The notes: generated by a model not told the origin, from the letters alone. 64,000 bases of DNA from a virus (IMGVR_UViG_3300036781_000420:1-64000); one strand, 5' to 3'; positions 3,230-50,962 are shown, numbered from the stretch's first letter. Numbers and translations are program-made.

Positions 3230-3721
3230 ATGAAACTGCATTCGATCATCGGGCTTGCCGCTGCGGGTCTGTTCTTCGCCGGTGCCGGCCTCGCCATCGC
3301 CCAGACGGTTCCGCTCACCCCCGTCACGTCGGTCGGGCCTTCCGATCTGTTCGCCGACGTGGTTGGCGGCTCGCCCTCGGCGCAGAGCAAGTTCGCCACC
3401 GCCGCGCAGATCGCCGGGGTGCCGGGCTACCATAATTTCGGCACCATCTCCGCCGATCCGGCCTATACCGTGCCGAACGGCGTTACCGACCTGTTCGCCC
3501 ATGCCGCCGGCACGCTGACCCTCGCGACCATCACCACCGAGCCGAACCCGGCCGACGGCAAGCGCGAATGCTGGTGGCTCGACGCGGCGACCACGACGCT
3601 GACGTGGACCGCCAATACCGGGCAGACGATCAGCGCCAACGTTCACGCGGCAGGCGTCGCCTTCAACCCGAACTGCATCACCTTCGTGGCGGCGCTGTCG
3701 AGTTGGGTTAGTTCCCCCTGA
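3230..3721 (+). CDS. secreted hypothetical protein (Sec signal peptide)
   Basis: RBS AAGGAGA lies 7 nt upstream. N-terminus is MKLHSIIGLAAAGLFFAGAGLAIA/QTVPLTP. Confidence 0.65.
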   Translation: MKLHSIIGLAAAGLFFAGAGLAIAQTVPLTPVTSVGPSDLFADVVGGSPSAQSKFATAAQIAGVPGYHNFGTISADPAYTVPNGVTDLFAHAAGTLTLATITTEPNPADGKRECWWLDAATTTLTWTANTGQTISANVHAAGVAFNPNCITFVAALSSWVSSP

Positions 3722-4884: not shown

Positions 4885-7398
4885 ATGTCGCTTCCCCGCT
4901 GGCTCGCGTTCATCGCGGTGCTCTTTGCCTCGCCAGCGCTGGGGCAGGTTGTGCCCTTGCAGGGCGGCCCCTGGGTTTCCGGTCACGCGCCGATGTATGT
5001 CAACAACGGCAGTGCCCAGCCGGTGCTGCTGGACAGCGGCGGGGCAGGCGGGGGCGGCTCCGGTACCGGCATCAGCGATATGGGCCTCACGGCACGCGGC
5101 CCGGGCGCGGGGCCCTATGCGGGCGCCGGCACCGGGCCGAATGGCGAGAACTGGTGCGATTACGACGCGCCCACGACGAACCCCGGCGGCTACCACTATC
5201 TTTGCCTGTCGCCCAACGCCCTCGGCGGCGGCCTGATCAGCTACGGCGCCAGTGGCGCGGCGAGCACCGACCCGCTCTATATCAGCGTCAACGGCCTGAC
5301 ATTTCCATTGGTGGGCGGTGGCACGGTGACCAGCGTCGGGCTGACCGCACCGGCACAGTTCAGCGTTTCGAACTCCCCCATCACCACGGCAGGCGACCTT
5401 GGGCTGGGCTGGGTTGCGCAGAATGCCAATACAGTGCTGGCCGGCCCCGGCAGTGGCGCCGCCGCAGCGCCGGGCTTTCGGGCGCTGGTTGCCGCCGACC
5501 TGCCGTTTCCCGGCCCTACGGCCATCGGTGGCGTGACCAGCCATGCGGCGGTGACGCATCAATTCCTTACCCAGATCGGCACCAACGGGACAATTTCCGC
5601 AGCGCAGCCGGCAGCCGCCGACCTCAGCAACGGCGTAACGGGCTCCGGCGCGGTGGTGCTGGCGACGGCGCCGACCATTGCCGGGCTGACCGCAACCGGA
5701 TCGCTGACCGCAACGGGGCTGGTGACCAATGCCGACCTGGTGAATGCCGCCACCACGGTCAACGGCCAGACCTGCACGCTGGGCAGCACATGCACGGTGA
5801 CGGCGGCGGCGACGGGGGTGACGATCAGCACCACGGCCATCGGCTCCGGCACATCGGGACGCGTGCTTTACGACAATGCCGGGGTGCTCGGCGAATTGAC
5901 GACCACGGGCAGCGGCAGTGCCGTGCTGGCCAGCAGCCCGAGCCTTGTTACCCCGAATATTGGCGCGGCCACAGGCACCACGCTGACCACCACCACGACG
6001 GTATCGGCCCAGCCGCCGCCATTGCCGGGCGGCCAGAGCGCGGTCAATTATCACCAGATCACCGGCGACAACGTTGCGGCGACCGGGTTCATCCTCGGCA
6101 ATGAAAACCAGTACATCTTCGGCGGCAGTTCGGTGACCGGTGGCCGCATCGCCAATTACGATTACATTGCGAATACGGCGATCACCAACGCCTCCAATAC
6201 CAACCGCAACTATGTCGGCCACGTCGGCGAGGCATATACCAATGTCGGCGACGGCGGCACCGATACGGCGGGCGGCGCCAAGGGAGCGTTCTTCGGCGAA
6301 AACCCGGAAATGTTCGTCGACGCGGGCGCGACCAACCTGCTCAATGCCACGGCAATGGAGGTCGACACCTTCACCGCTGCCGGCTCGACGGTGCGCTATC
6401 TGACCGGCATGCAGATTGCCGGCGCCAACGCGACGCACGGCGTGGAAGTCGATACCGCGCTTGCGATTTACGGCACCACGTCGTCTGGCGGCTTCGGCCC
6501 GCATATCGGCTGGGGCACCGGTATCCTGTTCACCGATATCGGCGGCGTGAGCCCGTTCTATTCCAGCTCGACCATCATCGGTTATCACTGGCAGGGCGCG
6601 ACGCCGACGATCCTGAACGGCATCGATTTCACCGGCTTCACCTTTACCGGCAACGCCTTCCAATCGCCCGGCGTGCTGATTACCGGCAATGGCGGCCTCA
6701 ACCTCACCAACGCCAACGCCGATATGGAATTCGGCAGCACAACGGGAGCCAATACGCCGCTGATCGACTGGCACAGCTCGGGCAACGCTATCGATTACGA
6801 CGCCCGGCTGATCGCCTCCGGCGGCAGTGCCAGCAGCGGCAACGGGCTGTTGCAGGCGCTGGCAAGCGGGTTCTTCGTCAATGCCGGGCTGGCCGACGCC
6901 GAACAGGTCAGCATCCTTGCCGCCGACAATACCGCGCCGACCAACGTCAACACCGCGCAGAGCGTGTTTTCGTCCGGCCAGAGCACATTCACCGCGACGG
7001 CGGCGACCAGCTACCAGTTCGAGGCCGAATACGAAATCGACTCCACCGGCGCCACCAGCAATTCGCTGGGCGTACTGTTCGGCGGCACGGCGACATTCAC
7101 CAGCATCGGCTATGACGCGATTGCCACCAACGGCACCACGTCGACCACGGCCTCCGCAACCTCCGGATCGAGAGGAAGCGCGGCCACGCTGCTGACGGTA
7201 ACTCCGGCGGTAGCGGCGGCGACGCAACGGCTGGTCAAGCTGCGCGGCACCCTTCGCGTCAACGCCGGGGGCACCATTATCCCGGAATTCCAGTATAGTG
7301 CAGCGCCGGGCGCCGCGCCGGTGGTGCGGTCCAATTCGTATTTCCGCTTGTGGCCGATCACCACGAACATCATCACCAAACTCGGCGGCTGGTCGTAA
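4885..7398 (+). CDS. tail-fibre-like protein (837 aa) with Sec-type signal peptide
   Basis: RBS is ACGAGGT. N-terminus is MSLPRWLAFIAVLFASPALG/QVVPLQGGP. The first ~240 aa are paralogous to the 7679 gene. The rest is Gly/Thr/Ala-rich and fibre-like. Confidence 0.75.
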   Translation: MSLPRWLAFIAVLFASPALGQVVPLQGGPWVSGHAPMYVNNGSAQPVLLDSGGAGGGGSGTGISDMGLTARGPGAGPYAGAGTGPNGENWCDYDAPTTNPGGYHYLCLSPNALGGGLISYGASGAASTDPLYISVNGLTFPLVGGGTVTSVGLTAPAQFSVSNSPITTAGDLGLGWVAQNANTVLAGPGSGAAAAPGFRALVAADLPFPGPTAIGGVTSHAAVTHQFLTQIGTNGTISAAQPAAADLSNGVTGSGAVVLATAPTIAGLTATGSLTATGLVTNADLVNAATTVNGQTCTLGSTCTVTAAATGVTISTTAIGSGTSGRVLYDNAGVLGELTTTGSGSAVLASSPSLVTPNIGAATGTTLTTTTTVSAQPPPLPGGQSAVNYHQITGDNVAATGFILGNENQYIFGGSSVTGGRIANYDYIANTAITNASNTNRNYVGHVGEAYTNVGDGGTDTAGGAKGAFFGENPEMFVDAGATNLLNATAMEVDTFTAAGSTVRYLTGMQIAGANATHGVEVDTALAIYGTTSSGGFGPHIGWGTGILFTDIGGVSPFYSSSTIIGYHWQGATPTILNGIDFTGFTFTGNAFQSPGVLITGNGGLNLTNANADMEFGSTTGANTPLIDWHSSGNAIDYDARLIASGGSASSGNGLLQALASGFFVNAGLADAEQVSILAADNTAPTNVNTAQSVFSSGQSTFTATAATSYQFEAEYEIDSTGATSNSLGVLFGGTATFTSIGYDAIATNGTTSTTASATSGSRGSAATLLTVTPAVAAATQRLVKLRGTLRVNAGGTIIPEFQYSAAPGAAPVVRSNSYFRLWPITTNIITKLGGWS

Positions 7399-33967: not shown

Positions 33968-34188
33968 GGTCTTTCCCACATGGATTTCAGAATGAATGTC
34001 GCCGTTTCGATGTTCGAGGCGCTGATGAGATAGGCGGCACGGAATGCCGACAGGATTTCGACGAAAAGGGTCGTCGAGAAATCGATGATCATCCCCAGGA
34101 TCACAGCCAGCACCAGCACGATGGAAACGACGATTTTTACCGCGACGGGCAGGCAGGCCAGTTCTTCCTCGGTGTACTCGTCCATCAT
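33964..34188 (-). CDS. small membrane protein
   Basis: 74 aa with the hydrophobic segment VVSIVLVLAVILGMIIDF. Confidence 0.5.
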   Translation of the reverse strand: MMDEYTEEELACLPVAVKIVVSIVLVLAVILGMIIDFSTTLFVEILSAFRAAYLISASNIETATFILKSMWERP

Positions 34189-35255
34189 TCCCTCGTTTTC
34201 TCGATCACCATCCCCGAAAGCGCGATGCCTGCCTTTGCCGCCCGGTCGGCGAGCCTCTTGATCATGTCCTGCAATTCCGGATGTCCGGTATCGAGCAGCG
34301 CCAGCGTCAGCGCCCGCATATCGGTGATGTTGGCCCGGGTGACCGTGCGCAGCCCGACGGCCCTGCCATACGAACTGGTTGCCTGCACCTTGGGCGCCTC
34401 GGTCACGGCCGGCGCCAGTTCCTCGATCTGCTCGGCCACGGGAGGCGGCGCCGAATCGCCATTTTCGACAGCGTCTGCAAAGGCAACCCGCGCCTCAGCC
34501 ATGCGCCGTTCATTCTCCTGCCGGATACGCTCGTTTTCGGCGTCGATTTCCGCCTGCCGGACCCGCCGCGCGGCCTCTGCCGCCGCCCGTTGCCGGTCTT
34601 CCTCCGCCTTTACCCACGCCTTGGCCAAGCCCAGCACGCGGACCCGTTCGTCGGATGCGGGCGTGATGACCGGCAGCCACTTCGCCTGCACCGCCTTGCT
34701 GGCGTCGTCGTGCGGACGCTTTTCCTTGTCGCGCTCGGCATTGCCCAGCTTGAACAGCGTCTGCAACCGTTCGGCCATTTCGTTGGCTTTACGAGCGCCG
34801 TCAGCGTCGATCACGGCCGTGATCTTCTGCGCACTTTCGACGGCAGATGCGATCTGGTCGGCAATCGCCTCCTCGGCCGGCGGCGCGTTATCGCCCAGAC
34901 CGGTCATGGAGAACCCAGCCTTCTCCGCCTCGGTCTGCCTGCGGGCCGGCTTGCCATCGTTCGGCCAGACGCCATGCGCCACGGCGGCATCGTATTCGAC
35001 GACGCTGACGGCAATGCACTTCGTCCAGCCGTTACCGATGAACTCGTGCCAGTCGGTCGAATTCTGCGAGACCGCTTCCTGCCGGCCGATTTTCAGCAAT
35101 TGCCCGGTTCCGGTCGGCCAGATCGCGACGGGGTAATCCGGCTTGGTCTTCGCGCCGACGATCCGCCAGCGCCCGCAGATGTTGGAATCGGTATCGTGTT
35201 CGTGGGCGCGGCCATTCAATTCGGCCCGCCAATTCGAATATTCTTCGTTGGGCAA
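34185..35255 (-). CDS. hypothetical early protein with central coiled coil
   Basis: TTG start at 35255 follows GGAGA. It is 356 aa and the first gene of the leftward early operon. Confidence 0.6.
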   Translation of the reverse strand: MPNEEYSNWRAELNGRAHEHDTDSNICGRWRIVGAKTKPDYPVAIWPTGTGQLLKIGRQEAVSQNSTDWHEFIGNGWTKCIAVSVVEYDAAVAHGVWPNDGKPARRQTEAEKAGFSMTGLGDNAPPAEEAIADQIASAVESAQKITAVIDADGARKANEMAERLQTLFKLGNAERDKEKRPHDDASKAVQAKWLPVITPASDERVRVLGLAKAWVKAEEDRQRAAAEAARRVRQAEIDAENERIRQENERRMAEARVAFADAVENGDSAPPPVAEQIEELAPAVTEAPKVQATSSYGRAVGLRTVTRANITDMRALTLALLDTGHPELQDMIKRLADRAAKAGIALSGMVIEKTRE

Positions 35256-35291
35256 AGGCGTTCTCCTGTTTCGTATTGCGCTCTAAGTTGA

Positions 35292-35317
35292 GCGGTGTTA
35301 CCTCATATGTCAACCGC
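35292..35317. promoter_or_regulatory. imperfect inverted repeat (candidate operator) overlapping a TTGACA -35 on the minus strand
   Basis: GCGGTGTTAC-CTCATAT-GTCAACCGC lies in the 86-bp divergent gap. The minus-strand TTGACA is at 35308-35313. Confidence 0.35.
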
Positions 35318-35341
35318 AAAACAAAGCAAGGTAGCGTGTAA

Positions 35342-35506
35342 ATGGCGACGACAATTCGGGTGCAGGCAAGTTTGCGAAAGCCTCTCGGCGACGAGGTGCG
35401 CCGGCTCGCCGCGCAGGAAGGGCGGACCGTAGGAGATATGGTCGAGCGTCTGGTTGACGAGGCGGTCAAGGATCGTGCGGCCAAAGGCCTCGCGAACGTC
35501 GTATGA
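35342..35506 (+). CDS. ribbon-helix-helix (Arc/CopG-type) regulator, 54 aa
   Basis: Not in the ORF track because it is under 60 aa. MATTIRVQASLRKPLGDEVRRLAAQEGRTVGDMVERLVDEAVKDRAAKGLANVV has the strand-helix-helix pattern. The stop overlaps the next ATG. There is no obvious RBS, so it may be leaderless. Confidence 0.6.
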   Translation: MATTIRVQASLRKPLGDEVRRLAAQEGRTVGDMVERLVDEAVKDRAAKGLANVV

Positions 35507-35829
35507 GGCGCGGTTGCGTCTATTGCGGGACGCGAATGCAGCACGGGCGCCCCGGCGCACTGCATGGGCCTGCGGTCCGCTCGATCGATCATGTCCATCC
35601 GATCTCGGCCGGCAAGCATCTCAACCGGTCGCGGATATGGCTCGAACTCAACGAAGTGGTGTGCTGCCAGCGTTGCAACAACCTGAAGGATTCCATGTCG
35701 CCACTGGCATGGCTGCGGATAATGCCGGCTTACGGCGTCAGCGATCTTGCCGCCCGGCTACAGCGCATGGGCATCGCTTCCGGCGATATTCAGGCGGCGA
35801 TCAGCCTGCGGGCCGGAGCGCGCGTCTGA
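35503..35829 (+). CDS. HNH-type endonuclease
   Basis: CVYCGTRM...IDHVHPISAG...NEVVCCQRCNNLK. Confidence 0.65.
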   Translation: MRRGCVYCGTRMQHGRPGALHGPAVRSIDHVHPISAGKHLNRSRIWLELNEVVCCQRCNNLKDSMSPLAWLRIMPAYGVSDLAARLQRMGIASGDIQAAISLRAGARV

Positions 35830-36284
35830 TGGCCCGTGGCGGCGCATGGTTGCGAACGGGGCGCGTCAATGGCAGCGATGCGGCGGCGAGGCGAATCATC
35901 GTCCATGTCTGCAACGGCTGCGGGCTGTGGCACGAAGGCAAGAAGCCGGCGCAATGCCTTTCCTGCGGCCGTATGGATTTCACCCGGTTCGATTCGAAGG
36001 GGGAGGCCAAGTATTTTGCCACCTTGCAGATGCTCGAACGGGCCGGCGAAATATCGGACCTGCGCCGGCAGGTGGTGCTACCGTTGATGACGGTGGGGCG
36101 TGAAGGACTGCCCGTGCAGTGGAGCAAGATGATCGTCGATTACGCCTATTCCGACGATACAGGCGCCCATTTTCTCGACTTCAAGCCCGCCGCCGGCATG
36201 TCGCCAGATAGTGCTTTGAAAATTCGGTGCCTTGAGGCTCAGGGCATCATTGTTGAAATCGTAACCTCGAAAGGCAGAGACTGA
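35829..36284 (+). CDS. DUF1064-like nuclease (tentative)
   Basis: ATG 35829 overlaps the previous TGA. FDSKGEAKYFATLQMLERAGEISDLRRQVVLPL resembles DUF1064 FDSKKEA..Y..L..LEKAG.I.DL..Q. It has an N-terminal CxxC...CxxC. Confidence 0.55.
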   Translation: MARGGAWLRTGRVNGSDAAARRIIVHVCNGCGLWHEGKKPAQCLSCGRMDFTRFDSKGEAKYFATLQMLERAGEISDLRRQVVLPLMTVGREGLPVQWSKMIVDYAYSDDTGAHFLDFKPAAGMSPDSALKIRCLEAQGIIVEIVTSKGRD

Positions 36285-36911
36285 ATGTCGAAATCCCCCG
36301 AAGAAGAAAAAATCGACGGGAGCCTGATCAAGCTCGCCGAACAATACGCGAGCTGTGATCGGCGGTCGGCCGGCATCAACGACGAACGCAAGACGATTCG
36401 CGATAACGCCGAAAAGATCGGCATCCCCTCGAAGGCGTTTCAGCACGCCGTCGGCATGGTCAAGCAGATGACCACGGGCGAGCGCCGCGATTACCAGGTC
36501 GGCATCAACCGCGTGCTGTCGGCGATTTCGGATCGGCAGAACGACTTGTTCCCGGTCCAGGCCGAGCGCAACCGCAAGCGTGAAGAAAACCGGGCACGGA
36601 CCGGCAAGGAAGGCGCTATCAACTCCGACACCAACCCACGATCCGACCCGAACCGTGGCGGCGCGGCACAGGAACGGGTCGCCAGCGGCAGCGAGCAGGC
36701 TTCGGCTACCAATACCGCCCCGGCGCGGCCGACGCCTCCCAGCGAGGCTGAGAACGCCGCAGAGCAGGAGGAGGGCGAGAACGTGCTTGCCTTCGGCGGC
36801 CGTAACGCCCCCTTGGTCGGCGGACAATGGCCGGATGATGTCGCCGCCGCCAAAAAGCCGTCACAATCCGAGCAGGCCGCCAAAAAGCGGGCCGCTGCGC
36901 TTATCAACTGA
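36285..36911 (+). CDS. DUF2312/GapR-like N-terminal domain protein (tentative) with a disordered tail
   Basis: LIKLAEQY....ERKTIRDNAEKIGIPSKAFQHAVGMVKQMTTGERRDYQVGINRVLSAI loosely parallels GapR. The assignment is weak. Confidence 0.5.
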   Translation: MSKSPEEEKIDGSLIKLAEQYASCDRRSAGINDERKTIRDNAEKIGIPSKAFQHAVGMVKQMTTGERRDYQVGINRVLSAISDRQNDLFPVQAERNRKREENRARTGKEGAINSDTNPRSDPNRGGAAQERVASGSEQASATNTAPARPTPPSEAENAAEQEEGENVLAFGGRNAPLVGGQWPDDVAAAKKPSQSEQAAKKRAAALIN

Positions 36912-37465
36912 TGATGCTGTGAACTTTGCGTCTGCCGGCTCTTGCCAAAACGGGAGTCGGTGGCGCAAATAAGACGAAGGCCGGGGAGTAATCAGCTCCA
37001 CCGGCCCCTAGTCTGCCACCGACGCGATGTGCACGCGTGCGGGATTGCCCCTTCTGTATGGGCAACCTCCTCACCCATTGCAAGCCTTCTCGCGCTGGTT
37101 TCCCCTTGAGGGCCGTCGTGGGCATTTCCACGCGGCTGTGGCGGCAGGTAGCCGCTGCATGGTGTGCGCCCAGTGAGCCGCCTTAAGGTCTAGCCTGCAC
37201 CATTCACGGGGACGATCACGGTGCAACCCCAGTCCTGACGACCGAAGGGGGATCGGCCAAGCAGCGAAATGCTTGGTGAAAGTAGCGGTCGTGACGGAAG
37301 GGGTTTCGATTTCCCTGATGTTGCCCGATGCGCCGACTCGTCTCAAGGGAACGGGTAGCACGGGAGGGGACCGACCCTGCTTTTTAGCGGGGAAGGTCGT
37401 CCTTTGCCCAAGTACAACCGATCTGAACTCAGCGAACATGGTTAGATAAGAATAGGGAGATAGTT
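36912..37465 (+). ncRNA. candidate structured non-coding RNA or cis element (class unknown)
   Basis: A 554-nt gap with no plus-strand ORF of 60 aa or more. Many local helices can be read off the sequence (see finding). Strand assignment is tentative. Confidence 0.3.
36979..37006 (+). terminator. GC-rich hairpin downstream of the 36285 gene, without a U-tract
   Basis: GGCCGGGGAG-TAATCAG-CTCC-A-CCGGCC. Confidence 0.3.
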
Positions 37466-37822
37466 ATGATGAACTGGCCTATCCAGTTGTTGCAGTTGAA
37501 AGCCTTCCTCGGGGCAAATGGCGTGGTCACCAGCAAAATCGGCAACGCGGAGGATGTTGCCTATGTCGCGACCAAGCTGTTTGGACTGCGATTGGATGCA
37601 TCCGAGCCGCTTTCGTTGTTGTCCCTCCAGTCTCGGATTTCCTCTCTCGGGTATGCTCACCGCCGGGCGATGGTCCGGCTGAACCTCGGGACGTTGCCGG
37701 CGCATCTGGTGAGTACCCGCGAGGCGCACAAAGACAAGCGCGAGGGCAAGTTGGCCAGGCGAGACCGGAAATATCTCAAGACCTTGGGGAGCGGCGAAAT
37801 AGGCAAGAGTAAAAATCCATGA
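37466..37822 (+). CDS. hypothetical protein (lower-GC island)
   Basis: RBS is GGGAGA. The 118-aa ORF ends ...GKSKNP, with its stop inside the ATGA of the next gene. Confidence 0.55.
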   Translation: MMNWPIQLLQLKAFLGANGVVTSKIGNAEDVAYVATKLFGLRLDASEPLSLLSLQSRISSLGYAHRRAMVRLNLGTLPAHLVSTREAHKDKREGKLARRDRKYLKTLGSGEIGKSKNP

Positions 37823-38460
37823 ACGCGCTCGTGCCGAAGTCGCCGCAGCGGTTGAGGATGATGAAGTTCAAATGCGCGCATTGCGGCGTCGAGGCCGACA
37901 GGTTCGTCGGGGAAGTGAACCGGTCGCGGCGTAGCGGGCTCCCGCTCTACTGCGGACGCGAATGCGCTGGGCTGGAGCGCAGAAAGTGGGAGTCGCCAGC
38001 GCAGCGCAAAGCTGAGAAGCAGGCATATGACGCTGCCCGCCGCATCGCTCTAGCTGATGAACTACGCGCCAAGAAGGCAGAATACCACAAACGCACCTAC
38101 GACCCTGCGAAGGCGGCGGTTGAGCGCAAGAAGCGCATGCCAAAGCATATCGAATATTGCCAAAGTCAAAAATATCGGGAGTGGAAACGGGAGTACGACC
38201 GCCAATATTTGGCGAAGAAAGACTACGGTGAATTTTGGGAGTGCCATTTGTTAGCCCTCGATATTCGAGAGGAAGTTCTTCGGCAATCCTCCGACTACGA
38301 CATCCGCCTGGAGAAAGGCGGAATTGCAAAAACCCAACAACGGAGACGTGACTATGAGCAGTTCAGACGTTCTGACACTGACGGCCAAGAACTTGAAGTC
38401 GGCCCTTTGGGAAACCTTGCAGGCCGTCAAGAGCGGCGATATGCAGCCCGGCCAAGCTGA
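37819..38460 (+). CDS. Zn-ribbon-containing basic hypothetical protein
   Basis: KFKCAHCGVEADRF...LYCGRECAG, then a K/R/E-rich helical region. Its 3' end overlaps the next gene by ~107 nt. Confidence 0.55.
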   Translation: MNALVPKSPQRLRMMKFKCAHCGVEADRFVGEVNRSRRSGLPLYCGRECAGLERRKWESPAQRKAEKQAYDAARRIALADELRAKKAEYHKRTYDPAKAAVERKKRMPKHIEYCQSQKYREWKREYDRQYLAKKDYGEFWECHLLALDIREEVLRQSSDYDIRLEKGGIAKTQQRRRDYEQFRRSDTDGQELEVGPLGNLAGRQERRYAARPS

Positions 38461-38575
38461 TGCCGTGGCATCTCAGGCCCGCGAGATTCTCCGCACCACC
38501 AACACGCAGCTTCGTGTCGTGCAGCAGGCCAAGCGGACTGTGCCGGTGGACGTTTTGACGTTCGCGGAAAGCTGA
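38354..38575 (+). CDS. small helical hypothetical protein
   Basis: ATG 38354 follows GGAGA and lies within listed ORF 38324..38575. Confidence 0.5.
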   Translation: MSSSDVLTLTAKNLKSALWETLQAVKSGDMQPGQADAVASQAREILRTTNTQLRVVQQAKRTVPVDVLTFAES

Positions 38576-38610
38576 GCCCTACCTTCAACCCGAAACACAG
38601 AGGGGGATAG

Positions 38611-38712
38611 ATGCTGACGAGCACCGAACTAACGATGCGGAGTGCCGCTCCCGGATCGAAGTTAAAAATCATCGCCGCTGCAAAGCGGGCGAAGGCGAGG
38701 AAAAATCCATGA
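38611..38712 (+). CDS. 33-aa basic mini-protein
   Basis: Not in the ORF track. RBS is AGAGGGGGA. MLTSTELTMRSAAPGSKLKIIAAAKRAKARKNP ends ...KNP with ATGA coupling, the same junction as at 37819. Confidence 0.4.
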   Translation: MLTSTELTMRSAAPGSKLKIIAAAKRAKARKNP

Positions 38713-39344
38713 ACGCGCTCGACTTCACGTCGGCCTCGGAAATGATCGAGAACTATGCCCGTGTCAGGTCGGCTTTTTGGGGCAAGCCTGCGGCAAAGGC
38801 CCCGGCGCCGCTCAAGACAATCGCCAGGGCCATCCACCCGAGGCCAACGCCGCGAGATTGGTTGATAATCGGCGATCTCGACTTGCCGGCCGGCACCGAA
38901 ATCCGCGTTCTCTCGAAACCGCGCAAGCCGAACCAGCGCGCCATGAAGAACAGCGATCCTCGTTGGCACGATATCGCGCGGGAGGTCTGCGACAAATACG
39001 TCGTGAGCCTGCTTATGCTCCAGTCCAACAGCCGCAGTACCAAGCTGATTTTGCCCCGGCACGAGATGGCCTATCGCCTGCGCAAGGAAACGCAGATGAG
39101 CTGCGCCGCCATCGGCAGGAAGCTTGGCGGGCGCGACCACACCACAATCATGCATAGCGTCAAGAAGCACGCCGAACGTCTGAAGGCGGCGCGCGATCCT
39201 GGGGCCGCAGCCGGCGAAGCTGCGACCCCAGTGCCACTTGGGGGACTCGCCGGACATCCCCACGGAAACCGGCAAGGGGGGCTCCAAGCGCAAGCCCACG
39301 ATGCCTCTGGCGCGCCGGCGATGCCATCGACACAATCGAGTTAA
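38709..39344 (+). CDS. DnaA domain IV-like DNA-binding protein
   Basis: SRSTKLILPRHEMAYRLRKETQMSCAAIGRKLGGRDHTTIMHSVKK aligns with E. coli DnaA [45 protein letters not shown]. Confidence 0.8.
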   Translation: MNALDFTSASEMIENYARVRSAFWGKPAAKAPAPLKTIARAIHPRPTPRDWLIIGDLDLPAGTEIRVLSKPRKPNQRAMKNSDPRWHDIAREVCDKYVVSLLMLQSNSRSTKLILPRHEMAYRLRKETQMSCAAIGRKLGGRDHTTIMHSVKKHAERLKAARDPGAAAGEAATPVPLGGLAGHPHGNRQGGLQAQAHDASGAPAMPSTQSS

Positions 39345-39367
39345 CCGATAAACCGAAAGGGTAGGAC

Positions 39368-39760
39368 GTGACCAAGGGGGCTGAGGCTGAACTGTTCACT
39401 GCACGACAAGAACTTGAGCGCGTATTGGACGCGGAACACGCCAAAGGCGTTGTGGATCATCGGACGGCGAAACGGGCAAAGCTTACGCCATTCGCCGCAA
39501 GGCTGCTGGCAAAGGAATTCGCCAAGTGCGCCGACCCGAATGCAGCAGCGGAGGCCATGATCGTCTTCGGCTGGACGGGCTTCAAAGTCGAATGGATGGA
39601 ACGGGGGCAAGCCCGGTCTTCCTATGGTAGACAGGGCGGGATAGAGGCCGCGAAGGAAGCATTGAGGCGGAGAGTGCAAGATGAACTCGGATCATCTCGC
39701 GAAGGAATCGCTGGTGCTCAACATGTTGGAAGGTTGGGCCTCATCGCAAAACTTAACTGA
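39368..39760 (+). CDS. hypothetical protein
   Basis: GTG start. 130 aa. The 3' end overlaps the next ORF by 80 nt. Confidence 0.45.
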   Translation: MTKGAEAELFTARQELERVLDAEHAKGVVDHRTAKRAKLTPFAARLLAKEFAKCADPNAAAEAMIVFGWTGFKVEWMERGQARSSYGRQGGIEAAKEALRRRVQDELGSSREGIAGAQHVGRLGLIAKLN

Positions 39761-50128: not shown

Positions 50129-50523
50129 AGAAACTGGATATCGACGCCACGCTTGTGCGGATGCGGGAATCCCTTGTGATGCTCGCGAAACATGGCAATG
50201 ACGTTGACGGCCTCGCGTTGAACGCGAGTGGCATCGAAGCGCAAATCGCCCTGATGCACTGGGCGTTATCCACGATGGTCGAAGGCGGCGATCTCGCCGA
50301 TATCACCGATATTCTGCTGGCGGCGGTGGCGATCTGCGCCACCGCGGTCGCCAACATGGTGATGACGGTCGAATGCAATGACGCCTCGGAGACCATCGGT
50401 GCGCGACAATATTTGCTGGATTATTTCGTCGCCGCTCTCGGCAAAAAGCTGCACGAGATGGTGATGGATGGCGATGCGGATGTAGACATTGCCGCCGTGC
50501 GCATCGATGTCGGCGACGCCTGA
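50125..50523 (+). CDS. hypothetical helical protein
   Basis: ATGA-coupled ATG 50125 follows GGAGGAGACTGGGAG. Confidence 0.55.
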   Translation: MKKLDIDATLVRMRESLVMLAKHGNDVDGLALNASGIEAQIALMHWALSTMVEGGDLADITDILLAAVAICATAVANMVMTVECNDASETIGARQYLLDYFVAALGKKLHEMVMDGDADVDIAAVRIDVGDA

Positions 50524-50639
50524 TGTGGTGGTTGAGCTATGAAGGGCTGGCTCTCATTGCATGGGGAAGCGGCACTGCTGTTTTGCTGGCGGCATGGAAA
50601 TGGCTGGACTGACCGGCCGACGGGAACGGGGGGAGATTT

Positions 50640-50894
50640 ATGGCCCAAAAAACGCGATCTTACTGCGAGAACTGCTGGGCGCCGCTTGAGACTGCCGGGG
50701 CGAACGTCTGCTGTCCGACCTGCATGGTGCAGTTGACGAAGCTGAGGCACACCACGCGGCTGTCGATCCGGGGCAATGAATTCCAGATGATCGGCGGCAA
50801 CGACACCATCACGGTGCCGCTGGCGCAACCGGTGCCGGCGAGCCCCTCCCTGCCTTGGTGGGCGCGACTCGCGTACCGGATGAGACTGTGGTGA
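50640..50894 (+). CDS. Zn-ribbon hypothetical protein
   Basis: RBS is GGGGGGAGA. It has CENCWAPL...CCPTC. Confidence 0.55.
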   Translation: MAQKTRSYCENCWAPLETAGANVCCPTCMVQLTKLRHTTRLSIRGNEFQMIGGNDTITVPLAQPVPASPSLPWWARLAYRMRLW

Positions 50895-50918
50895 GGCGTG
50901 AACAAAAATAGCTGGCAT
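50888..50918. promoter_or_regulatory. 7-bp inverted repeat in an intergenic gap
   Basis: GTGAACA-N17-TGTTCAC, followed by the related words CATGAAAAACAG and CATGAACAACATG. Confidence 0.25.
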
Positions 50919-50962
50919 TTCTGTTCACGCTCCAGCATTGTTGTGCATGAAAAACAGGGGGC

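Follow-up and report, generated by a model that had tools for sequence, protein, structure and literature searches.

A conserved non-coding gap upstream of a replication module

We analysed 64,000 nucleotides (nt) of the viral contig IMGVR_UViG_3300036781_000420 (positions 1-64000, referred to here as the window) with a focus on the 554-base gap at 36912-37465, which is bounded by the stop codon (TGA, 36909-36911) of a gene encoding a 208-amino-acid (aa) protein and by the start codon (ATG, 37466) of a gene encoding a 118-aa protein. The gap is located between early genes (a gene for a DUF1064 resolvase-like protein, followed by the 208-aa gene) and the replication module. An exonuclease and an HNH protein are also encoded to its left, a DnaA domain IV protein and an O-like protein are encoded to its right, and the phage carries a T7-type portal. 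An initial annotation of the window had proposed a large structured RNA or cis element in this gap. Our analysis indicates that the gap is a real conserved, non-coding, structured element of uncultured alphaproteobacterial phages, as that proposal implied, but that it combines two separate parts instead of forming a single large RNA, namely a common 5' module of ~150 nt and a replaceable 3' domain of ~330 nt.

A scan for open reading frames (ORFs) confirmed that the plus strand of the gap contains no ORF of 60 aa or more. G+C content by codon position is flat over 36912-37465, whereas both flanking genes have a strong third-position bias (the genome G+C content is 62%). On these two grounds we judged the gap to be non-coding. 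ORFs of 49-122 aa can be found on both of its strands and could in principle represent a missed small protein gene or a decayed gene. We rejected a coding gene on the basis of the flat codon-position G+C, the absence of any ORF conserved between the window and the related contig L002, and the frame-breaking indels (1, 8 and 29 nt) in the alignment of the two. In addition, the 122-aa ORF, which is on the minus strand, has no Pfam match, and gene callers placed no gene in the gap of any relative. We regard a gene at this position as hardly credible.

All 16 sequence words listed in the initial annotation are present where it had placed them, and the gap folds more stably than dinucleotide-shuffled sequence (RNAfold z = -3.62 on the plus strand and -3.48 on the minus strand, n = 100 shuffles; z = -3.3 and -3.0, respectively, in a second run). 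Twenty-four control windows of 554 nt taken over the same 64 kb had a mean z of -0.26 (sd 1.2, minimum -3.1). The gap thus has the most negative value, but the margin is not wide and folding energy taken alone would not be convincing proof that the gap is structured. The control window at 50400-50953 (z = -3.1, 40 dinucleotide shuffles) is the sole other of the 24 below -2.6, and ORFs on both strands overlap it.

The initial annotation had matched the gap to no RNA family, and an Rfam 15 search at gathering score of the 64-kb window and 13 related loci returned no match. Searching Rfam inside the gap at E-values up to 10 yielded chance-level matches only, and ARAGORN identified no tRNA or tmRNA. 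A blastn search of the gap against 50,697 phage records had no match, nor did tblastn searches of the upstream 208-aa protein and of a 637-aa protein against deposited phage genomes. The 208-aa family had no match among 185,579 reference genomes, and single-protein locus searches of IMG/VR found no relatives.

The gap follows homologues of one early gene and has two parts

The 208-aa protein has 46 homologues in metagenomes. An ORF-free gap follows the homologue in almost every contig that we fetched, amounting to ~15 independent metagenomic contigs, and this recurrence, together with the covarying helices described below, is the strongest evidence that the element did not arise by chance. An overall range of 230-590 nt, with the same 5' module, applies to nearly all relatives of the gene. 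The gap is 448-535 nt long in eight relatives (L002, L003, L006, L009, L016, L017, L018 and L019) and shorter, about 150-230 nt, in four others (L001, L008, L015 and L020). The same element sits further down the operon in L022. In the short forms L020, L001 and L015 the 5' module abuts the start codon of the next gene, and the 3' domain is absent from the short forms. In other relatives the 3' domain is either swapped for unrelated sequence or absent.

The genes located 3' of the gap vary by contig (DnaB, DUF1376, GcrA, methylases and orphans). This argues against the suggestion in the initial annotation that the gap was acquired together with the three genes downstream of it, since the element travels with the 208-aa gene. 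The lower-GC island on which that suggestion drew is real but mild, with a G+C content of 0.50-0.61 at 37200-38400 compared with 0.60-0.69 in the flanks; inside the gap G+C is 0.55-0.63 throughout. One of the downstream genes encodes a 213-aa protein with 159 homologues, including proteins from Devosia sp. ZB163 and a Roseibium metagenome-assembled genome, which is a clue to host range. This gene occurs in 50 IMG/VR contigs, none of which has a window-type element beside it (0/50), and two of the 50 carry a related cassette in another gene context. As the element follows homologues of the 208-aa gene and the window-type element is absent from the 50 contigs with the 213-aa gene, it belongs with the upstream early genes.

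Diverged copies of the cassette are present on the minus strands of the viral contigs L035 (2122-2640) and L032 (583-760), which lack the 208-aa gene. Both have a TTGAC box, an A-tract and a GC hairpin, and their leftward motif reads TTGCAA-N17-TATTTT or TTGAAT-N17-TATTTA. The presence of these copies without the 208-aa gene indicates that the cassette is a module that moves between gene contexts.

Covarying hairpins in the shared 5' module

The 5' module (about 36940-37120 in the window) has the same order of features in all relatives: a TTGAC-like box a few bases past the stop codon of the 208-aa gene, a small GC palindrome (H0), an A-rich stretch, the hairpins H1, H2 and H3, a pyrimidine-rich stretch, TGCAAG and the hairpin H4. 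RNAalifold applied to MAFFT alignments of the module returned zero pairs, with the stems out of register, and a covariance model was built instead for this reason. A first model, built from L020 alone, detects the window at E = 0.002. A second model, built from five relatives with the window excluded, detects the window over the full length of the module (36972-37122) at E = 2e-6, and also L003, L019, L001, L015 and L032. The module in the window was likewise recovered with nhmmer.

In the covariance-model alignment, 90.6% of cells in the hairpins are standard pairs compared with 64.6% when the letters of the 3' sides are shuffled, although this alignment is fitted to the structure and inflates pairing. 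Changes on both sides were observed in 30 of 35 pairs (18.8 in shuffles) and the number of double-change cells was 113 (33 in shuffles); none of 500 shuffles reached the observed values. Sliding the partners by 1-3 columns reduced pairing to 34-46%. Given the size of these effects, and given that most rows were not used in building the model, a real structural constraint on the 5' module is the reasonable reading.

Each of the four hairpins contributes to this signal. In H1, 12 of 13 pairs changed on both sides and 95% of cells are paired. Double changes were found in 5 of 7 pairs of H2 (93.6% of cells paired), in all 7 pairs of H3 (71-91% of cells paired) and in 6 of 8 pairs of H4. The window's own H4 is degenerate and its pairing is weak. 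Four helices noted in the initial annotation, 36979/37006 and 37045/37060 in the 5' module and 37238/37286 and 37257/37271 in the 3' domain, show compensatory changes in relatives. The 10-bp palindrome GCACGCGTGC that it had singled out at 37031-37040 is present, but it is merely the top of H2. In the minimum-energy fold of the window a perfect 9-bp pairing of GTCGGTGGC (36956-36964) with GCCACCGAC (37015-37023) encloses H1; it is not seen in relatives and is thus probably phage-specific or due to chance.

We considered whether the element might act at the level of DNA only, as a control region in which regulators of the phage or its host would act on promoters and on inverted repeats of the operator type, with the hairpins being protein-binding palindromes. 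The TTGAC, TGCAAG and GGTTCC motifs are conserved at fixed spacing, the palindromes overlap both of the promoter-like sites described below, and the relatives encode the regulators MucR and GcrA, all of which would fit such a region. Operators, however, keep the sequence of their half-sites, whereas the stems here change freely and stay complementary (the 30 of 35 double-changed pairs). The stems are also GC-rich, 8-13 bp long and variable in loop length, and the G.U-type variation in H4 makes sense in RNA only. We therefore consider control at the DNA level alone to be improbable.

Folding energy does not identify the strand from which a structured RNA would be transcribed, as both strands fold equally well in 11 homologues. 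Two of the hairpins are more informative. The loop of H3 holds the -10 box of a leftward promoter-like site on the opposite strand, and a complete H3 is possible only in a rightward transcript. H4 contains many U.G or G.U cells (for example, UG:7 vs UA:5 at one pair), which would be mismatched on the other strand, so that H4 is best read as an RNA helix of the rightward strand. The completeness of H3 in the rightward transcript alone, with all 7 of its pairs covarying, and the U.G pairs of H4 argue that a rightward RNA is made and folded, beyond any small RNA gene on the other strand.

Candidate promoters and a predicted antisense RNA

On the minus strand, every homologue has the motif cTTGCAw followed, after exactly 17 nt, by (C/G)ATAnA. 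The pattern TTGC[AG][AT]-N17-[CG]AT[AT]N[AG], which was derived from these same sequences after viewing them, matches the fetched DNA (341 kb) 12 times, in every case at the homologous minus-strand position. The distance from TAT in the H3 loop to GCAA is constant at 20 nt, and this constancy is explained by a leftward motif with a fixed -35/-10 arrangement. The CCUCCUC word at 37066-72, which the initial annotation had described as anti-Shine-Dalgarno-like, is present as part of a conserved pyrimidine-rich stretch, and it is located within the spacer of this motif. In L002, the 3' end of the gap (6090-6113) has an inverted copy of the TGCAA...CCGGTTCC motif (GGAACCGGTCTGAGCACAGTTGCAT) that abuts the next start codon, and a weaker equivalent is located at about 37417-37443 in the window.

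A small RNA transcribed from the leftward site would start ~7 nt past the -10 box, begin with GCAAUCCCG and end after H1, where the minus strand has a U-rich tract (UUCGUCUUAUUU in the window, UUUCUUUUU in L015 and GCUUCUUUU in L017). The tract of the putative terminator in the window reads TTCGTCTTATTT. This layout, one hairpin and then a GC hairpin with a U-rich tract at 65-85 nt from the putative start, is predicted for 12 of 15 homologues. A generic terminator scan, which is independent of our model, called H1 as a minus-strand terminator in L017 and L015. H1 was also considered as a plus-strand intrinsic terminator of the upstream operon and was rejected for most relatives, as no T-run follows it on that strand.

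We also searched for a composite signature consisting of the promoter-like motif, a hairpin of -14 kcal/mol or lower and a T-rich tract 55-105 nt downstream. All 11 matches obtained in the first set of loci (341 kb) are at the element, and shuffled sequence (1.07 Mb) gave no match. Unrelated viral contigs (687 kb) gave four matches, two of which are the diverged cassette copies in L035 and L032.

For the rightward direction, a TTGAC, TTGCC or TTGAA box is located at a constant distance of ~145-160 nt upstream of GGTTCC in 14 of the 16 homologues measured (the distance is longer in L021 and L022), and the two out-of-context copies, L035 and L032, likewise have a TTGAC-like -35 box. In the window, H1 begins 36-37 nt downstream of the TTGCCA box, which is the distance expected for a start at the foot of H1, and we place the putative rightward start there. 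The coordinates of all features are given in Table 1.

Table 1. Features of the gap and its surroundings in the window. Promoter sites and the small RNA are predictions.
Feature	Coordinates	Strand	Description
ORF-free gap	36912-37465		Between the 208-aa and 118-aa genes
Rightward promoter-like site (P+)	36942..36971	+	-35-like TTGCCA 36942-36947; 17-18 nt spacer; A-rich -10-like GCAAAT(A) 36965-36971; putative function
Predicted small antisense RNA, ~82 nt	36967..37048	-	5' single strand GCAAUCCCG, H2, linker, H1, then UUCGUCUUAUUU as putative intrinsic terminator
Hairpin H1	36979..37006		GGCCGGGGAG / CTCC-A-CCGGCC; 10-13 bp GC hairpin in relatives
Hairpin H2	37019..37042		CCG-ACGCG / CGCGTGCGG; contains the GCACGCGTGC palindrome
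Hairpin H3	37045..37065	+	TTGCCC / GGGCAA, loop CTTCTGTAT; CTnTAT loop in relatives
Leftward promoter-like site (P-)	37055..37083	-	-35 TTGCAA 37083-37078; 17-nt spacer; -10 CATACA 37060-37055
Hairpin H4 (GGTTCC motif)	37095..37115	+	GGTTTCC ... GGG in the window
3' structured domain B3 (~330 nt)	37125..37400	+	Terminal hairpin 37369-37398
B3 helix Pa	37197-201/37220-24
B3 helix Pb	37225-30/37300-05
B3 helix Pc	37238-44/37286-92
B3 helix Pd	37257-62/37271-76
208-aa gene	36285..36911	+	Not matched in Pfam or PHROG; family serves as marker of the locus
Ribosome-binding site and 118-aa gene	37452..37822	+	AGGGAG; first downstream gene, orphan; coding bias resumes at 37466
213-aa gene	37819-38460		CxxC...CxxxC motifs, basic repeat-like middle; large family, no Pfam match

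A possible antisense-RNA control cassette with a structured leader

The explanation that we favour, at a probability of roughly 0.5, is that the gap is an antisense-RNA control cassette of the oop/sar/RNA I type combined with a long structured leader for the replication module. Two candidate promoters would face each other ~140 bp apart. The rightward promoter, just past the stop codon of the 208-aa gene, would produce a leader of ~430 nt that comprises H1-H4 and the 330-nt domain and continues into the downstream genes. The leftward promoter, with its -10 box in the loop of H3, would produce an RNA of ~80 nt in which one hairpin precedes a GC-rich terminator hairpin and its U-tract. This small RNA would end at the start point of the rightward transcript and would be perfectly complementary to the first ~80 nt of the leader. 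Pairing with the leader and convergent transcription would hold down expression of the genes in the replication region, the mode of action of lambda pO/oop, P22 sar, ColE1 RNA I and R1 CopA. We infer from the sequence that both RNAs are made, where they would start and end, and what effect their pairing would have. The antisense explanation is supported by the similar folding of the two strands, which a sense/antisense pair should show, and the short forms, in which the module abuts the next start codon, have the classical layout for antisense control of a leader.

The main rival is that only one long transcript of about 430-500 nt is made, a non-coding RNA or 5' leader read rightward in which all of the hairpins act, with no antisense RNA, and that the minus-strand signals are by-products of the hairpins. 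Such a leader could, for example, act by antitermination or attenuation, or sense a ligand or protein on behalf of the replication genes. H3, H4 and the 3' domain covary and the U.G pairs of H4 are strand-specific, which would be expected of such an RNA. The same is true of the canonical plus-strand terminator at the end of the element in L016 and of the H0 palindrome upstream of H1, which has T.G wobbles in the plus orientation in several relatives, and no promoter passes the generic scan. However, the minus-strand GC hairpin with its U-tract, which 12 of 15 homologues have, is no by-product of a plus-strand hairpin and requires a conserved A-tract 5' of H1, and the invariant 17-nt spacing of TTGCAw and CATAnA is predicted by promoter geometry and not by RNA folding. 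The 3' domain, being replaceable or absent, also cannot be the core function of the element. We consider a single leader unlikely on balance, though it deserves more weight than either a purely DNA-level control region or a missed gene.

Several observations weigh against an antisense cassette, in addition to the inflated pairing of the covariance-model alignment and the derivation of the leftward pattern from the sequences that it describes. A generic sigma-70 scan calls neither candidate promoter, and both -10 boxes lack a T at position 6. The A-rich "-10" of the rightward site is the complement of the U-tract of the small RNA and could therefore be conserved for either reason. L003, L019, L022 and L002 have only a weak U-tract, and counts of G.U vs A.C in H1-H3 are balanced and do not single out a strand. 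The 330-nt 3' domain is unexplained by the antisense model. A possible alternative reading of the leftward site also exists: GGTTCC and TGCAAG/ACGCAA at 37078-37103 on the minus strand, and at the homologous sites in L003, L016 and L017, read GGAAC-N16/17-CGTT (or CATT, CAAT), which overlaps the -35 box of the leftward motif. This resembles the promoter consensus of alphaproteobacterial ECF/EcfG sigma factors.

Detailed knowledge of antisense switches beside phage replication genes is limited to a few enterobacterial model phages. If confirmed, the element would be a conserved and computationally well-defined example from uncultured alphaproteobacterial phages. It could aid the annotation of early and replication regions in metagenomic phage genomes, and could provide a compact regulatory part and a way to identify the roles of exchangeable RNA domains. 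The prediction is directly testable, as it specifies both promoters, the ~80-nt RNA and the terminator of that RNA. The finding also points to interchangeable folded RNA domains of 330 nt that are absent from Rfam.

Comparison with known antisense systems

As an antisense cassette, the element is a familiar kind of switch in a new form and not a new kind, and it has no sequence relation to known families. In ColE1, RNA I is 108 nt long and has three stem-loops, and replication needs no plasmid initiator protein. The element resembles the RNA I/RNA II pair in that a small multi-hairpin antisense RNA would cover the 5' end of a folded RNA of ~500 nt, end near its start and adjoin replication functions. 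We therefore considered a ColE1-like replication primer system or phage origin, in which the rightward RNA would take the part of RNA II, the primer precursor, and the small RNA that of the inhibitor RNA I, setting copy number or timing. The predicted arrangement, with a folded rightward RNA of 430-550 nt and an antisense RNA over its 5' end that ends at its start site, would suit such a system, as would the position of the element directly upstream of replication genes (DnaA domain IV and O-like in the window; DnaB and DUF1376 in relatives). In contrast to ColE1, the small RNA predicted here is ~80 nt long with two hairpins, not three, and these phages encode their own initiator-type proteins. 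The initial annotation had likewise raised a replication origin, and this did not hold up: there are no iterons or tandem repeats, no DnaA box (allowing at most one mismatch, 36912-37465) and no AT-rich stretch for unwinding. An origin equivalent to that of ColE1 would be located in the 3' domain, which is not conserved and is missing in the short forms. We rate a primer system or origin as quite improbable, less so only than a missed gene.

In P22 sar, R1 CopA and pT181, convergent promoters are located in the leader and a small structured antisense RNA blocks translation or causes early termination of the downstream gene. The target in these systems, a ribosome-binding site or attenuator, is at most a few tens of nt away from where the RNAs pair. 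A target this close is found here only in the short forms L020, L001 and L015, whereas 330 nt of folded RNA intervene in the window.

A further parallel is pO/oop of lambda, where a short antisense RNA is encoded just upstream of the replication genes, and where both antisense pairing and promoter interference have been proposed (PMC3985674). The features predicted here that resemble pO/oop are a short antisense RNA, a stem-loop plus intrinsic terminator, a promoter facing the rightward early transcript and a location beside replication genes. The lambda oop RNA overlaps the 3' end of the cII coding sequence, whereas the RNA predicted here would overlap a non-coding leader only and would end just past the stop codon of the 208-aa gene. 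The element is not similar to oop in sequence or by Rfam, and it additionally has a promoter-like site for the rightward direction and a predicted leader that is long and folded.

Exchangeable 3' domains

Profile searches with nhmmer distinguished three types of 3' domain that do not detect one another. B1 is found in L016, L017, L018 and L022, B2 in L003, L006, L009 and L019 and also in L035, which is a different phage context, and B3 in the window and L002 only. In B2, 19 of 46 pairs covary. For B3, RNAalifold on the window and L002 returned 24 pairs with 8 compensatory changes, in agreement with a manual count. Between the window and L002, GCACC/GGTGC changes to GCGCC/GGCGC, Pc from (A)CGACCG/CGGTCG(T) to TGGCTG/CAGCCA and Pd from CCAAGC/GCTTGG to CCGAGG/CCTCGG, and AACCCC/GGGGTT corresponds to GTCCGC/GAGGGT, with G.U pairs included. 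As it comes from two sequences, the covariation in B3 is suggestive and is no proof.

A canonical plus-strand terminator ends the B1 element in L016 according to the terminator scan, and by sequence this is also the case in L018 and L022. The terminal hairpin of the window is followed by GTCCTTTG, which has no proper T-run, and was not called by the scan. DNA-pattern scans for further copies of B3 gave a single chance match in IMG/VR and none in genomes. A chance pattern match fell in an AT-rich viral contig, L024, which carries a sharply GC-rich, hairpin-rich island of ~230 nt between AT-rich flanks (3330-3560). The island is unrelated to the present element, and has the appearance of an insertion or a structured RNA.

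Phage genomes are known to encode other long, conserved and folded non-coding RNAs 3' of an early promoter, and the element shares this description with the large structured RNAs GOLLD, ROOL and HEARO of Rfam and with the cis-acting antiterminator RNA put of HK022. It differs in that no Rfam model matches the window or 13 relatives at E-values up to 10 and in that its 3' domain is ~330 nt long and represented by two sequences, while the put RNAs are ~70 nt. It is possible, as a tentative proposal, that an antisense-controlled cassette precedes a slot for exchangeable RNA cargo, and that the at least three unrelated ~330-nt domains are free-standing functional RNAs of new classes and not mere leaders. 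Cargo RNAs in such a slot might, to give one example of comparably tentative standing, be decoys or regulators that act on host or defence proteins.

Flanking genes and minor sites

A database search with the 118-aa protein encoded directly downstream of the gap returned only the protein itself. The only sigma-70-like site called by the generic scan within 35000-39500 is TAGATA-16-TATGAT at 37443-37470. The site overlaps the start codon of the 118-aa gene as well as the ribosome-binding site, its predicted start is inside the ORF, and it is therefore probably a chance match.

Further upstream, leftward recombination genes (exonuclease, 34185-35255) and the rightward early operon meet at a divergent junction (35255-35342 and 35342-35506). 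The early operon opens with a 54-aa ORF, for which a ribbon-helix-helix protein is only a guess from its sequence. The main early switch region is probably this junction near 35255-35506, which precedes the gap by ~1.6 kb.

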